From a virus (lineage: Duplodnaviria; Caudoviricetes), in IMG/VR virus record IMGVR_UViG_3300033463_000014, positions 64,001 through 128,000 of that record: a stretch of 64,000 bases of DNA. One strand, 5' to 3'. Positions within the stretch are counted from its first letter, which is position 1, and the number at the start of each line of letters is the position of its first letter. Positions 2,107 through 7,770 of this stretch are shown here, in pieces. Under the pieces are notes generated by a model. It saw only the letters and a program-made list of their open reading frames with translations. It had not been told where the DNA came from and made no database searches. Both the position numbers and the translations under genes were made by a program.

Positions 2107-2451
2107 CTAGTATTTCCTGATGGCCGAGACGGCGCCTATGCCGGTCCCTAGCCCCTTGAGAAAGCCGTTGTTCGTGAATGCTCCCGTTATGACCCTTCCG
2201 AGGATGCCTCCTCCGATCATTCTGAGCGCGTTTTCCGCCGGCGACGTGCTCCTGAGTCCGGAGTCGATAATGCGCCCGAACGCGTCCCTGCGCTCCTCTG
2301 GAGTCCCGATTCCCCTCGCCTGGGCGACGCCTATTGCGTTGAGGACGTCTGCGACCGACGGCTCGGGGTTTTCCCGTCCTACGGTGGGGGACCAAGCCTG
2401 GCCGTAGAACGCCAGCTTCTGAAGGGTTGATGCGTGTCTGTCAGTGATCAT
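2107..2451 (-). CDS. Putative virion protein with glycine-zipper C-terminus
   Basis: ATG 2451 lies just downstream of TGGTATAAT; contains QKLA and GGGILG...GLGTGIG. Confidence 0.65.
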   Translation of the reverse strand: MITDRHASTLQKLAFYGQAWSPTVGRENPEPSVADVLNAIGVAQARGIGTPEERRDAFGRIIDSGLRSTSPAENALRMIGGGILGRVITGAFTNNGFLKGLGTGIGAVSAIRKY

Positions 2452-2460
2452 AACTGACTG

Positions 2461-2469
2461 ATTATACCA
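2461..2469 (-). promoter_or_regulatory. Extended -10 promoter (TGGTATAAT), probably a near-leaderless transcript
   Basis: TGnTATAAT consensus 9 nt upstream of ATG 2451, with no RBS; the identical 9-mer occurs at 17425 and 58516. Confidence 0.6.
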
Positions 2470-2484
2470 CAAACGGGATGAAAG

Positions 2485-2603
2485 TGGCGGACGGGGCGGG
2501 GGTCGAACCCGCATGCCTGGATGTCGGATGGTCCTGCGCCGTTCCGCGGCGTGTCCGATTCCGGTCGAAAGGAACAAAGCCCGGCATCGGACGGCTCCCG
2601 TCC
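2485..2603 (-). ncRNA. Atypical tRNA-like RNA (acceptor stem, T arm and encoded CCA, with a non-canonical 84-nt core)
   Basis: GGACGGG/CCCGTCC 7-bp acceptor stem, discriminator G, CCA end; T arm GCGGG-TTCGACC-CCCGC; intergenic once the downstream ORF start is moved to 2451. Confidence 0.75.
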
Positions 2604-2614
2604 TCACGGATAAT

Positions 2615-3361
2615 TTACCCAATCTGAACGGTCAGCGCATCCGGGGCCCACAGGCTCCTGTTCCTCTCGAGCCATGAGTCCGCCATATTTTTTTTCCTTC
2701 TGGAGAACGACGCGCTTCCCAGATGCTCGATATACGGGTCGAGCGACTTTATGCGATGGCCCTTTAGCCCGCGCTCCTCGCAGTCCCTGTAGAACCACGC
2801 CCCTGTGTCGTAGTGCTTGTTCGGGAGATTATTTGAAAGCATCTCCATGAACTCGCCGTTGTAGTACCTTACTCCGGAGTCCCGGACTAACGGAACGTTT
2901 ATGAATGACAGGAACGGCAGAACCCTGTACGGGCAAAGTCCCATCTCATCGTTAAATGCGGAGAAGACCTGGCCCGACCATACGGCATCGTCAACGACAA
3001 AATCACGGATATCCCCCTTCATCAGCACATCGCTGTCAACCAGCATGAACGGCTCGTCGGTGTTGTCGATAAACCATTGGACAGACCTGCAATGCTTGGC
3101 CGACCCGTAGTTCGAGATGCGTGCATCCCTTGCGACCTTGTCCGGAAAACCCCGGAGCATCTCATCGAAGTCTATGACCTTACCGGACGTATTGTCGACA
3201 ACATCTATCCCGACACTTACGGTTTCCGGAGCTACGAAAGGGTCTCTGTCGCTGCTGTCGAATATGACGACACGGTCTATGCCCTTAGCGTTTTTATCGA
3301 TCGACCTTACGGCGGCCGATGTCACGTTGGGGGTATTATAGTGCGCGATGAAAGCTGTCAT
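2615..3361 (-). CDS. GT-A fold (GT2-like) glycosyltransferase
   Basis: IAHYNTP N-terminal strand, VIFDSS, LVDSD (DxD) motif, late HLGSAS; start at the ATGA overlap. Confidence 0.75.
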   Translation of the reverse strand: MTAFIAHYNTPNVTSAAVRSIDKNAKGIDRVVIFDSSDRDPFVAPETVSVGIDVVDNTSGKVIDFDEMLRGFPDKVARDARISNYGSAKHCRSVQWFIDNTDEPFMLVDSDVLMKGDIRDFVVDDAVWSGQVFSAFNDEMGLCPYRVLPFLSFINVPLVRDSGVRYYNGEFMEMLSNNLPNKHYDTGAWFYRDCEERGLKGHRIKSLDPYIEHLGSASFSRRKKNMADSWLERNRSLWAPDALTVQIG

Positions 3362-4134
3362 TCCCACAGTCTCCTGTTCATCTCGATCCATGCGTGGAAA
3401 CTCATCCTCTTCCTATATGACGCGGATCCATAATGAACGATGTATTGGTCTAGAGACTCCAGCCTTTTGCCGTCCAGACCGCGCTCCTCGCAGTCCCTGT
3501 AGAACCACGCCCCAGTGTCGCAATTACTTCCATACTCATCTTCTGAGAATCTCCACATGAAATCCTCATTGAAATAACGCGCTCCCGCATTCTTTACCAT
3601 CGGAACGTTTATGTAACACGCGAACGGCAATATCCTTGTCGGCTTTAAACCATAATCCTCTGAGTATTCCGAAGAACATTCACCAACCCATGCGTGGGAT
3701 TCCGAAACCATTACGGACATGTCACTCTTGCAGAGAACATCGCTGTCAAGGAGTACAAACGGGTCGTCCGAGTTGTCTATGAGCCATTGAACTGACCTGC
3801 AGTGCCTGGCTGACCCGTAGTTAGCCGTCCCCCTCTCAGGGCGTTTCCCCTTTCTCTCGCTCACCATCCTGTCCAGATCAACAAGGTTTCCACCGGTGTT
3901 GTCCAAAACGCGGACGAGGTTTCCTAACCCTTCAGGTATGACGAATGGAAGATGGTCGCTGTTGTCGAAAACCGTTATCCTTGAGACGGAAGGCGTGCTT
4001 TTGACAACCGATTTTACGCAAGCGGACGTGAGGTCTGGGGTGTTGAAATGTACGATGCAGACGCCGATCATGCCATTTCCGTGATCGCAGGAGCCTCTCA
4101 TTCCCGTGTAGCGCAAATATCCTCCTGACATCAC
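3358..4134 (-). CDS. GT-A fold (GT2-like) glycosyltransferase, paralog of the neighbour
   Basis: IVHFNTP, VFDNS, LLDSD and HYGSAS motifs; collinear with 2615..3361. Confidence 0.75.
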   Translation of the reverse strand: MMSGGYLRYTGMRGSCDHGNGMIGVCIVHFNTPDLTSACVKSVVKSTPSVSRITVFDNSDHLPFVIPEGLGNLVRVLDNTGGNLVDLDRMVSERKGKRPERGTANYGSARHCRSVQWLIDNSDDPFVLLDSDVLCKSDMSVMVSESHAWVGECSSEYSEDYGLKPTRILPFACYINVPMVKNAGARYFNEDFMWRFSEDEYGSNCDTGAWFYRDCEERGLDGKRLESLDQYIVHYGSASYRKRMSFHAWIEMNRRLWE

Positions 4135-6021: not shown

Positions 6022-7770
6022 CTACGCCTCGTTCGGGTCGAGGCGGTCGTCGACTGGGGCGTCCCCGCTCACAATACCTCCGCCGAACGCCTCGGGCGGT
6101 ATCATGTCGTCGACGGCCATTCCGAGCAGCTTCATCGCGGCCATGCTGGCGAAGCACAGGGCGTGGCAGAAGTCGTCTGGCTGTGACTGGTTCCTGAGGT
6201 AGAGCCTGTGCGTTATCCCGCCGACCTCCGTTGTCGCCTCGTAGTCCGACAGGAGGTCCTCGAGGTAGATCCAGAACCCCTCCTCCTTCGGGAAGAAGGT
6301 CCTCCGGTTCCTAATGGCTAAAAAAAGGACGTCTAGCGCCATGACCTTGTCTATGGTCCAGCACTGGACGGTGTTCGTCCTTCCCGTTGACTGGTTCCTT
6401 CCGAACAGCTTGAGCTGCCGGGTGTACTGCATCTGGATGATGGGGAGCCCGAACCTCTTGGCCAGGATCTGGTTCTTGTCCAGACCCATTCCTGCGTCAG
6501 CCGCACACGCTATGACATTGTAGAACCGGCACACCTTGGCTATGTCCGTCATCTGCTCGTCGGGGTCGAAGCCCCTGTAGCGCCTCGCCCATAGCACGTC
6601 TATGCGGCCGCTCGGACGTATCCCGATGACCGTGATGACGGTGAAGGACGAGAGCTCCGCTCCGCCCCAGTCGATTCCGGCAACGGTGAAGGAGTACCGG
6701 TTCGGGTTCGCCTTCAGCTCCTCCTGAAGCGTCTTGGTCGAGGGGAGGAGGCACTGGCGCTGGATGTCGGCCCGCGTCAGTAGCCTCTGTCCGACAGAGT
6801 AGGAGATTCCGAGGTTCTCCTGGATGAAGGTCGCAAGGATTCCGGACGTCAGCTTGGTGAGCAGGCGGTTCCACTTTGCCGGGTCCTCCACGATCGCCGG
6901 CACGACGACCTGGGGTATGTGGTAGCCCCTGAAGGAGTTCATCCTGCCCGGGAATGCGGCGATCCACTTGCCATCCCTGACGTTGAGCTTTCTCCCGCAG
7001 TGTACGCAGTGCATGCCGTCCGCCTGGATCATGTTGAGGACCTTGCCGTCCATGTTGGGTATGTTGTGGTACCCGCATGACTTGCACCGCATGACCCACT
7101 CGCACTGGGCGCTCTTCTGCCATAGCGACTCGATGAGGTTCTCGACCACCATGGCCGTGCCTGTGTAGCGGGAGCACCCGTACTTTGCGGACGTTAGCGT
7201 CTCCTTGACGATCGGGATGGTCTCCGAGGACTGGGACTGTATCTCGTCGAAGTCGCAGAACTCCTCCTCGAGGCCGCGGACGCGGTCGGCCGACGACTTG
7301 GCGTAGGTGAGGACTACACCTGATCCGTTCGCGAAGCTCTTGTGACCCGTGGCCTTGTTGATCTTCGAGTCGGACATCGTGTCGGCTAGAGCCTGAGACT
7401 GGAGGGCCCCGGCGAGCGGGCATGACTTGATGGCCTCGCTCAGGATGAGGTCGCTGTACCGCCTTGACTGCTCCTGCAGCGGGGCGACGTAGAGCATCTG
7501 CAGGTTCGGGATCGTGATCATGTTCATCACCTCGCTCCTGGCGAGGTTCTGCGTCTTCCCGATCTGCCTGCCCGTCATGAAGATCATGTCCGGGACGAGC
7601 TCCCTGCCGTACATGACCCTGAACTGCGGGTAGTCCCTGAGGCTGTAGGGCTCACCCCTGATCCTGAACAGGGCGGGGAGCAGGTCTGCGCGGTCCATTG
7701 AGCGCATCCTCTCCCTGAAGGAATCGCTCCTGGCGATCCTGACAAGCTCCTCCGCCCCTATCTCTGCCAT
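6022..7770 (-). CDS. terL: Terminase large subunit (GpA-like, with a zinc-ribbon insert)
   Basis: Walker A TGRQIGKT, Walker B CDFDEIQ, coupling motif GTA, CKSC/CVHC, nuclease AGIDWG and C-terminal DDFCHA. Confidence 0.9.
   Translation of the reverse strand: MAEIGAEELVRIARSDSFRERMRSMDRADLLPALFRIRGEPYSLRDYPQFRVMYGRELVPDMIFMTGRQIGKTQNLARSEVMNMITIPNLQMLYVAPLQEQSRRYSDLILSEAIKSCPLAGALQSQALADTMSDSKINKATGHKSFANGSGVVLTYAKSSADRVRGLEEEFCDFDEIQSQSSETIPIVKETLTSAKYGCSRYTGTAMVVENLIESLWQKSAQCEWVMRCKSCGYHNIPNMDGKVLNMIQADGMHCVHCGRKLNVRDGKWIAAFPGRMNSFRGYHIPQVVVPAIVEDPAKWNRLLTKLTSGILATFIQENLGISYSVGQRLLTRADIQRQCLLPSTKTLQEELKANPNRYSFTVAGIDWGGAELSSFTVITVIGIRPSGRIDVLWARRYRGFDPDEQMTDIAKVCRFYNVIACAADAGMGLDKNQILAKRFGLPIIQMQYTRQLKLFGRNQSTGRTNTVQCWTIDKVMALDVLFLAIRNRRTFFPKEEGFWIYLEDLLSDYEATTEVGGITHRLYLRNQSQPDDFCHALCFASMAAMKLLGMAVDDMIPPEAFGGGIVSGDAPVDDRLDPNEA

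Follow-up and report, generated by a model that had tools for sequence, protein, structure and literature searches.

A 119-nt tRNA-like gene of a large bovine-gut phage carries, to judge from its sequence, the acceptor and T arms of a serine tRNA on a body that is predicted to fold otherwise than as a cloverleaf. The preferred explanation of this irregular phage tRNA-like gene is that it represents a remodelled, mosaic descendant of a class II tRNA-Ser, residing in a variable tRNA/cargo interval and probably being a young relic, a reading that we hold to be evenly balanced between right and wrong. Its ancestor was most likely a phage serine tRNA gene, and the RNA itself is most likely non-decoding. 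The gene lies within the window, by which we denote the whole 64-kb stretch analyzed, i.e., bases 64001-128000 of a 181,382-bp virus record (58% G+C) that has direct terminal repeats and is rated complete. Public runs containing this stretch comprise bovine-gut and other gut metagenomes, and no RNA run is listed among them. The features referred to below are, in window coordinates:

2485..2603, minus strand (2603->2485): tRNA-like gene, 119 nt; RNA position p equals 2604 minus the window coordinate
2597..2603, minus strand: 5' acceptor strand GGACGGG, RNA 1-7, perfect complement of RNA 109-115
2593..2595, minus strand: 5' strand GCC of the closing helix, RNA 9-11, pairing with GGC 87-89 at a probability of 0.86-0.89
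2553..2592, minus strand: hairpin 1, RNA 12-51, 7 bp, a 1x1 mismatch and 4 bp, with a 16-nt U-rich loop
2537..2551, minus strand: hairpin 2, RNA 53-67, CGCCG/CGGAA/CGGCG, 5 bp with a 5-nt loop, from the minimum-energy fold and the Ser-model alignment
2519..2534, minus strand: hairpin 3, RNA 70-85, GGA/UCC in this record, at the variable-arm position
2515..2517, minus strand: 3' strand GGC of the closing helix, RNA 87-89, from the minimum-energy fold
2513..2525, minus strand: three strain substitutions, 2513 A>G (U91C), 2522 T>C (A82G) and 2525 C>T (G79A)
2496..2512, minus strand: T arm GCGGG / TTCGACC / CCCGC, RNA 92-108, pair probability 0.93-0.96
2485..2495, minus strand: 3' acceptor strand CCCGTCC, RNA 109-115, discriminator G116 and encoded CCA, 117-119
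2615..3391, minus strand: upstream open reading frame (ORF), 258 aa, with a paralogue at 3358-4134
2461..2469, minus strand: putative extended -10 promoter TGGTATAAT, located 9 nt ahead of the ATG of the downstream gene, as read from the sequence
2107..2451, minus strand (2451->2107): conserved 114-aa gene, the true downstream neighbour of the RNA
6022-7770: terL (phrog_675)

Serine-type top half

Each element of the top half described in the initial annotation was borne out by the sequence. The acceptor strands GGACGGG (RNA 1-7) and CCCGTCC (RNA 109-115) form seven perfect base pairs, the discriminator is G116, the CCA is encoded, and the 5' acceptor strand is separated from the T arm by exactly 84 nt. 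The RNA thereby shares with canonical tRNAs the 7-bp acceptor stem, the 5-bp T stem and a 7-nt T loop of the type T-T-C-R-A-N-N. Scanning of the entire genome (181 kb, both strands) for modules composed of a 7-bp acceptor stem, a 5-bp T stem, a TTYRANN loop and NCCA returned two modules only, namely the 119-nt RNA and a tRNA-Arg(CCU), compared with a mean of 0.025 modules per genome in 40 Markov-1 random genomes of the same dinucleotide frequencies. The top half is real, beyond chance.

For the categorization of the top half, one-genome-per-species contigs were searched with the 3'-end pattern GGTTCGA-NN-CC-NNN-CCCGTCCGCCA, yielding at least 120 loci. Among the matches listed, each of the 108 tRNAs called by ARAGORN at loci with this 3' end was a tRNA-Ser (anticodons UGA 75, GGA 16, CGA 11, and GCU 6), and nearly all of these tRNA-Ser genes begin with GGACGGG. 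The matches listed originate mostly from Alphaproteobacteria and also from gut Clostridia, where the gene is a tRNA-Ser(CGA). The same pattern was found at 23 loci in viral contigs, almost all of Ser(UGA) type; the exceptions are one Ser-type gene whose anticodon is GUU and a small number of att-site hybrids. In addition, the RNA displays G1-C72, G2-C71, and G73, the conserved acceptor-end features of bacterial tRNA-Ser (PMC9976931), of which G73 also blocks LeuRS and TyrRS (PMC9976931; PMC5389517; PMC7609411). The anticodon is not used in serine identity and is ignored by SerRS (PMC9976931; PMC5389517). Judged by these sequence matches, we assign the top half to the serine type, which is the new element of the present analysis. 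The RNA likewise has features used by RNase P and in 3' end processing, which is consistent with the earlier proposal that RNase P could process it. The accompanying suggestion that it is perhaps aminoacylated gains ground, the acceptor stem and G73 being those of a bona fide tRNA-Ser, whose synthetase ignores the anticodon (PMC9976931).

The viral contigs also contained other unusual genes. At L172 (6657-6746, minus strand; IMGVR_UViG_3300035184_000978), a viral tRNA with a full tRNA-Ser body, i.e., a GGACGGG acceptor, G73, and a long extra arm, bears the anticodon GUU (Asn) and can be regarded as a candidate missense tRNA. In L165, L170, L173-L175, and L180, a non-pairing 5' strand, GGTCGGG, is fused with the 3' portion of a tRNA-Ser(UGA); these look like att-site hybrids of elements integrating into tRNA-Ser.

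Fold of the body

The minimum-energy structure calculated for this record with ViennaRNA (-53.4 kcal/mol) consists of a GCC/GGC helix (9-11 with 87-89) closing three hairpins, with A8 unpaired, and coincides with the hand fold given in the initial annotation. Hairpin 1 (40 nt, pair probability 1.0) occupies the place expected for a 17-nt D arm; the idea that it is a repeated mobile element was dropped, no other copy being found in the genome. The alternative cloverleaf that had also been put forward, in which 9-11/23-25 form a D-like arm and the loop TTTCGACC comprises 8 nt, does exist, but it is 14.5 kcal/mol worse. Only in this 8-nt loop, which has a pyrimidine at position 37, is a CGA anticodon present. 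Compared with dinucleotide shuffles, the z-scores of this record were -1.5 for the whole RNA, -0.9 for the core alone (9-89), and -2.6 for hairpin 1 alone. The core fold is not significantly better than the shuffles; only hairpin 1 stands out.

At default settings, ARAGORN detected neither a tRNA nor a tmRNA at the RNA. An intron-bearing tRNA was rejected as well, ARAGORN proposing one only at lowered thresholds in the form of a poor tRNA-Glu with a 31-nt "intron". No Rfam family matched the 64-kb window at gathering thresholds, the RNA failing RF00005 too, and the only match at E<=10 was tRNA-Sec (RF01852) with 18.2 bits versus a cut-off of 47, carried by the acceptor stem and the T arm. These checks agree with the initial view that the RNA is no standard tRNA, tmRNA, or member of an Rfam family. 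A tRNA-Ser covariance model built from 27 bacterial and four phage tRNA-Ser genes gave a score of 34.2 bits, a value inflated by the selection of the training genes via the query's own 3' end; all real tRNAs of the related phage G001 scored higher (36-61 bits).

In the alignment to this model, 41 nt are treated as an insertion in place of the 17-nt D arm, and the anticodon arm of the model falls on hairpin 2, whose loop GCGGAAC corresponds to the anticodon GGA with C33. Hairpin 2 is flanked by 1 nt before and CA after, comparable with positions 26 and 44-45 of real tRNA-Ser. Hairpin 3 (4 bp, 8-nt loop) follows 2 nt after hairpin 2 and is itself followed by 6 nt preceding the T arm, three of which pair with nt 9-11; the V-arm pairs of the model mostly fail. 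A canonical D arm with G18G19 and U8 was looked for and found neither by ARAGORN nor by the Ser model, position 8 being an A. Similarly, the search for a Ser anticodon in a 7-nt loop with U33 yielded only GGA in the loop GCGGAAC, which has C33 and could be closed by a G-C pair. As U8 and a G18G19 loop are both missing, the normal D-loop/T-loop elbow cannot form and, as a consequence, decoding has most likely been lost.

Taken by these predictions, the body is not a cloverleaf, and no tRNA model accepts it. The five predicted helices would nevertheless stand in the order of a class II tRNA, with a hypertrophied hairpin at the D position and a doubtful anticodon loop, for which the models leave two rival assignments: hairpin 2 would supply GGA, and the alternative fold CGA in its 8-nt loop. 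The case for a core homologous to a tRNA-Ser body would be founded on the order of the helices and the lengths of the connectors rather than on sequence. The initial annotation had regarded the core as novel. This claim is not supported, and neither is the decoy or aminoacyl-donor role suggested with it. The core has no covariation support, no homologue, and weak thermodynamic support, and we prefer to read it as a remodelled tRNA-Ser body because its five helices follow the class II order with the 1-nt and 2-nt connectors rightly placed.

Genomic context and relatives

G1 of the RNA (2603) is located 11 nt downstream of the TAA stop codon (2617-2615) of ORF 2615-3391. The gene had originally been placed 11 nt downstream of glycosyltransferase genes; the distance holds, but the glycosyltransferase label is weak, with no Pfam/PHROG match of the ORF itself and only some of its homologues being fused to PF14393. 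Used as a query, the ORF retrieved no related viral loci, and an exact-protein look-up, from which the window's own genome may be excluded, had none on record. On the other side, the 3' end of the RNA lies 15 nt before the putative extended -10 promoter TGGTATAAT of the next gene. A promoter and terminator belonging to the RNA itself were sought beside it with only chance-level matches. ORF 1613-2395 (260 aa) was rejected as a frame artefact of G+C-rich DNA, since the homologues show two genes there, 2451->2107 (114 aa) and ~2092->1613.

Both terL and the 114-aa gene point to one large gut-phage family with the gene order terL, variable interval, 114-aa gene, three small genes, and a fused RNA polymerase gene. 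The 114-aa gene has >150 homologous clusters (63-83% identity, 105-148 aa) and is situated in the relatives between the cargo interval and the RNA polymerase gene. The RNA is part of the variable cargo interval extending from terL to the 114-aa gene. In phage G001 (terL 69% identical), the same place hosts ~24 tRNAs including four GCCA-ended Ser genes, of which three escape ARAGORN and Rfam and two carry C33; one irregular Ser tRNA shares the C33-GGA-A37 loop core of hairpin 2. Elsewhere, the interval contains a tRNA-Met (L159), a tRNA-Gln (L020), or, in other relatives, unrelated genes.

Copies of the RNA were searched for with ARAGORN, the top-half scan, blastn-short, and the Ser model in 19 metagenome and three viral loci retrieved via terL and in 15 loci retrieved via the 114-aa gene. 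It was absent from all of these fetched loci, including those with a neighbour gene 81-83% identical; the sole blast hit in a relative (L009) falls inside a coding region and was discarded as a chance match. A blastn search of the RNA against the phage collection gave no match, and the exact 28-mer of T arm and acceptor was absent from viral contigs and genome contigs. Among the loci examined, the RNA is restricted to one lineage.

The only ordinary tRNA of the phage is the tRNA-Arg(CCU), encoded outside the window (genome 149833-149909, minus strand). AGG accounts for 40% of the Arg codons in the phage ORFs, which fits codon supplementation by this retained tRNA. The commonest Ser codons are TCC (30%) and TCG (25%), so that a Ser tRNA as ancestor of the RNA makes sense. 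As potential partner proteins, a class II synthetase core domain, a CCA-adding enzyme, RtcB, and Ro (TROVE) were sought; genes of PF00587 (class II synthetase core domain, which includes SerRS), PF01743, PF01139, and PF05731 were absent from the genome. A search restricted to tyrosine integrases (PF00589) gave no match in the complete genome.

Within the family, further irregular genes were encountered. L006 (13015-13399, plus strand; IMGVR_UViG_3300031992_000021) has four tandem tRNA-Ser genes (CGA, GGA, UGA, GCU), all ending in GCCA, of which ARAGORN and Rfam call the last only; position 33 is C rather than U in two of them, and the T stem of one contains a U53-C61 mismatch. In this phage group, Ser tRNAs of irregular form seem to be typical. 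At the site matching that of the RNA, L149 (2357-3000) has 645 nt in which no gene is called and which gave no tRNA or model match.

Strain variants and a mosaic contig

Contigs from the runs X3, X4, and X5, belonging to three other studies, cover the RNA and share the same three substitutions, U91C, A82G, and G79A. None of them is located in the top half and no helix is broken. A82G even adds a pair, extending hairpin 3 from GGA/UCC to GGAC/GUCC, and the X3-X5 allele reaches a fold energy of -57.5 kcal/mol (z = -2.4 versus shuffles). The three shared substitutions within the 119 nt of the RNA can be set against 55 differences in 829 nt of the X4 contig, a comparison that does not amount to a measurement of conservation, the run-specific differences comprising only the best-supported ones. 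Altogether, the strain data hint at constraint on the RNA.

A second contig of run X3 (~193 nt) matches the window at 2480-2513 only, i.e., the last 29 nt of the RNA plus 5 nt of trailer, comprising T arm, 3' acceptor strand, GCCA, and trailer. On its 5' side, this contig continues with an anticodon arm of regular form, bearing UAG in the loop CTTAGGA, and with a short extra arm capped by GAAA. Aligned with the core of the RNA, its 30 visible nt performed no better than shuffles (p = 0.2-0.4), and a 37-nt pattern derived from it had no match in viral contigs or in the loci collected here. As the homology stops at RNA position 91, a mosaic joint can be placed there. The nearest known relative of the 3' module would accordingly appear, by sequence, to be part of an ordinary-looking class II tRNA. 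This partly realizes the refutation foreseen in the initial annotation, that homologs might turn out to be ordinary tRNAs, the only other contig sharing the 3' 34 nt continuing as class II arms. In its own right, the X3 contig represents a class II tRNA with a Ser-type 3' acceptor strand, G73, and the anticodon UAG (Leu codons CUN), with 30 nt of its body visible. If charged by SerRS, such a tRNA would insert Ser at Leu codons, as allo-tRNAs do.

Comparison with known systems

With class II tRNA-Ser (7/5), the RNA has in common the acceptor stem GGACGGG/CCCGTCC, G73, the encoded CCA, the 5-bp T stem, and the UUCGANN T loop as well as five helices in the same order, with 1-nt and 2-nt connectors at positions 26 and 44-45. 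It differs by a 40-nt hairpin instead of the 17-nt D arm, A8 instead of U8, the lack of G18G19, and a G-C-closable loop with C33 at the anticodon position. Moreover, 6 nt precede the T arm, three of them pairing with nt 9-11, compared with 1-2 nt in tRNA-Ser; the length is 119 nt versus 88-95 nt, and no tRNA model calls the RNA.

Serine identity via G73 and extra arms is shared with the allo-tRNAs and other irregular Ser-type tRNAs described by Mukai et al. (PMC5389517). These have been reported in phages and bovine rumen Clostridia, and some of them were proposed to be regulatory or inactive (PMC5389517). Allo-tRNAs have an 8/4 or 9/3 split with normal D and anticodon arms (PMC5389517), whereas the acceptor/T-stem split of the RNA is 7/5 and its body abnormal; an assignment as allo-tRNA was therefore not made. 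Plant mitochondrial t-elements are likewise tRNA-like structures beside protein genes, acting as RNase P/Z cleavage signals and not as decoders (PMC1920247), and the start of the RNA 11 nt after a stop codon resembles this arrangement. The analogy is a loose one, as t-elements belong to another domain of life and do not encode their CCA, and a processing role of the RNA would be an inference.

The tRNA-like domain of tmRNA also combines an acceptor/T-arm module and CCA with the lack of a working anticodon arm and a helix at the place of the D arm. The absence of tmRNA features claimed at the outset was nonetheless correct: tmRNA has G3-U70 and A73, the RNA has A3-U70 and G73 at ~1/3 of the tmRNA length. 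It contains no tag reading frame or pseudoknots, and both the tmRNA mode of ARAGORN and Rfam were negative. Assignment to tRNA-Sec (RF01852) can be dismissed, the RNA having a 7/5 arrangement instead of the 13-bp 8/5 branch, no 6-bp D stem, and no UCA loop. For a Y RNA-like (YrlA) mimic, there was no TROVE match in the genome and no Rfam hit, and the ends of the RNA form an acceptor stem with CCA. Phage T4 encodes stable RNAs known as "species 1 and 2", small RNAs of the tRNA cluster with unknown function that are processed together with the tRNAs. By description, the likeness between these and the RNA presented here is that of phage-encoded small RNAs associated with a tRNA cluster.

Origin and possible fate of the RNA

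For a remodelled tRNA-Ser descendant, we envisage that the acceptor/T-arm minihelix was retained whole (G1-C72, G2-C71, A3-U70, G73, encoded CCA), while the D arm would have been replaced by the 40-nt hairpin and the extra GCC/GGC helix would lock the core; the arm at the anticodon position has a G-C-closable loop, GCGGAAC, with C33. The RNA would be transcribed by read-through from the upstream genes, cut by host RNase P at G1, and trimmed to the encoded CCA. It may be a weak SerRS substrate and may still serve as a processing site. The top half would have survived because few events separate the RNA from a working tRNA. In favour of such a relic are the top half that exceeds chance, the Ser-type 3' end, the tRNA-cargo context, the absence of a copy in the fetched loci of relatives, the mosaic joint at RNA 91, the helix order and connectors of the Ser-model alignment, and the failure of ARAGORN and Rfam. 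Against it, neutral decay should strike the top half too, yet 12 out of 12 pairs, the T loop, and GCCA are perfect, and the persistence of the RNA with an unchanged top half in strains of three further studies hints in the same direction.

It is precisely the perfect top half and the strain data that keep alive a selected non-decoding tRNA mimic, in which the Ser-type minihelix with CCA is functional and the core a mere holder. This reading ranks next after the remodelled descendant, and we consider it possible, though rather doubtful. The mimic would either serve as a decoy, diverting defences or toxins directed at the acceptor end or T arm of tRNAs, or carry seryl groups for a non-ribosomal reaction. 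A body diverged past recognition below a flawless top half, the maintenance of the RNA in strains of four studies with that half unchanged, and the better fold of the commoner allele (-57.5 kcal/mol, z = -2.4) are in line with it; moreover, phage tRNAs are known counter-defence tools (PMC10264068, PMC11555353), defences cutting tRNA tails exist (PMC12851939), and the anticodon is dispensable for serine identity (PMC9976931, PMC5389517). The mimic is challenged by its singleton lineage, with no copy in the fetched loci of relatives even at a neighbour-gene identity of 81-83%, by a core that has no covariation support (no homologous copies) and in this record is no more stable than shuffles, and by the absence of a partner gene among PF00587, the CCA-adding enzyme, RtcB, and Ro. 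E. coli SerRS furthermore reportedly reads the tertiary shape of tRNA-Ser (PMC9976931), which the core cannot copy. The fully elaborated version, a tRNA-Ser gene turned into a non-decoding "top-half" RNA that is cut by RNase P, CCA-ended, serylated or bound by tRNA-binding proteins, and selected as a decoy against acceptor- or T-arm-directed tRNA defences or as a private seryl donor, appears unlikely.

Placed lower, and in our estimate distinctly improbable, is a working irregular tRNA-Ser that reads UCC (GGA, hairpin 2) or UCG (CGA, alternative cloverleaf) and supplements the commonest Ser codons. The codon usage (TCC 30% and TCG 25% of the phage Ser codons) would suit this function, G001 keeps irregular Ser tRNAs including one with the C33-GGA-A37 loop core, and engineered Ser-type tRNAs reportedly tolerate V-arm hairpins (PMC7590224). 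Such a tRNA would, however, have to operate without a D arm, U8, or a G18G19 that could dock on the T loop; closure of hairpin 2 to a 5-nt loop is possible and U33 is missing from it, the CGA cloverleaf costs 14.5 kcal/mol and offers an 8-nt loop with a pyrimidine 37, and the Ser-model score below that of all real G001 tRNAs is accompanied by failure of RF00005. The lowest rank, and only a slim chance, is given to a recombination scar, i.e., a captured 3' fragment of a tRNA-Ser, as found at att sites, beside a fortuitous or hairpin-derived complement and with no discrete RNA produced. Viral contigs do show att-hybrid-like tRNA-Ser 3' halves on non-matching 5' strands, CCGTCCG occurs twice in the RNA (10-16 and 110-116) so that GGACGG can pair locally too, and the homology of the X3 contig ends at position 91. 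A scar is at odds with the perfect 7-bp acceptor stem carrying the exact tRNA-Ser 5' sequence GGACGGG, with the chance rate of 0.025 per genome for the full module, and with the lack of a tyrosine integrase in a complete genome with direct terminal repeats. The narrower case of an attP-type tRNA 3' fragment was likewise rejected, given the presence of the 5' acceptor strand and the absence of PF00589.

Implications and further observations

Phage tRNAs are now viewed as counter-defence tools besides codon supplements, and an RNA keeping only the acceptor/T-arm half of a tRNA-Ser would offer a clean natural test of which half is read by host enzymes and defences. Its value is at present limited by the single lineage. 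If the mimic reading were true, viral tRNA mimics would gain a new class, characterized by a rebuilt core of three hairpins under a 3-bp closing helix. If the remodelled descendant is only a relic, it would illustrate the turnover of tRNA cargo in large gut phages via mosaic joints inside tRNA genes. It would also explain the undercounting of such genes by standard tRNA finders, which missed three of the four Ser tRNAs of G001 as well.

Outside the window, the phage genome encodes a reverse transcriptase (RVT_1, E = 1e-13; genome 157029-157589, minus strand) that adjoins a 123-nt direct repeat with 93% identity (158006-158128 / 158370-158492, L187); this combination resembles a diversity-generating retroelement. 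Next to the RNA, the motif TGTGGTATAAT (or TGATATAAT) precedes the 114-aa gene in every relative (window 2449-2471, minus strand; L002 4840-4863; L149-L156). By its sequence, this motif reads as an extended -10 promoter with a very short leader. The ATG of the 114-aa gene follows the TATAAT hexamer after 7-9 nt in the window and L002, compared with 12-25 nt in other relatives; the shortest of these distances may give a leaderless transcript.
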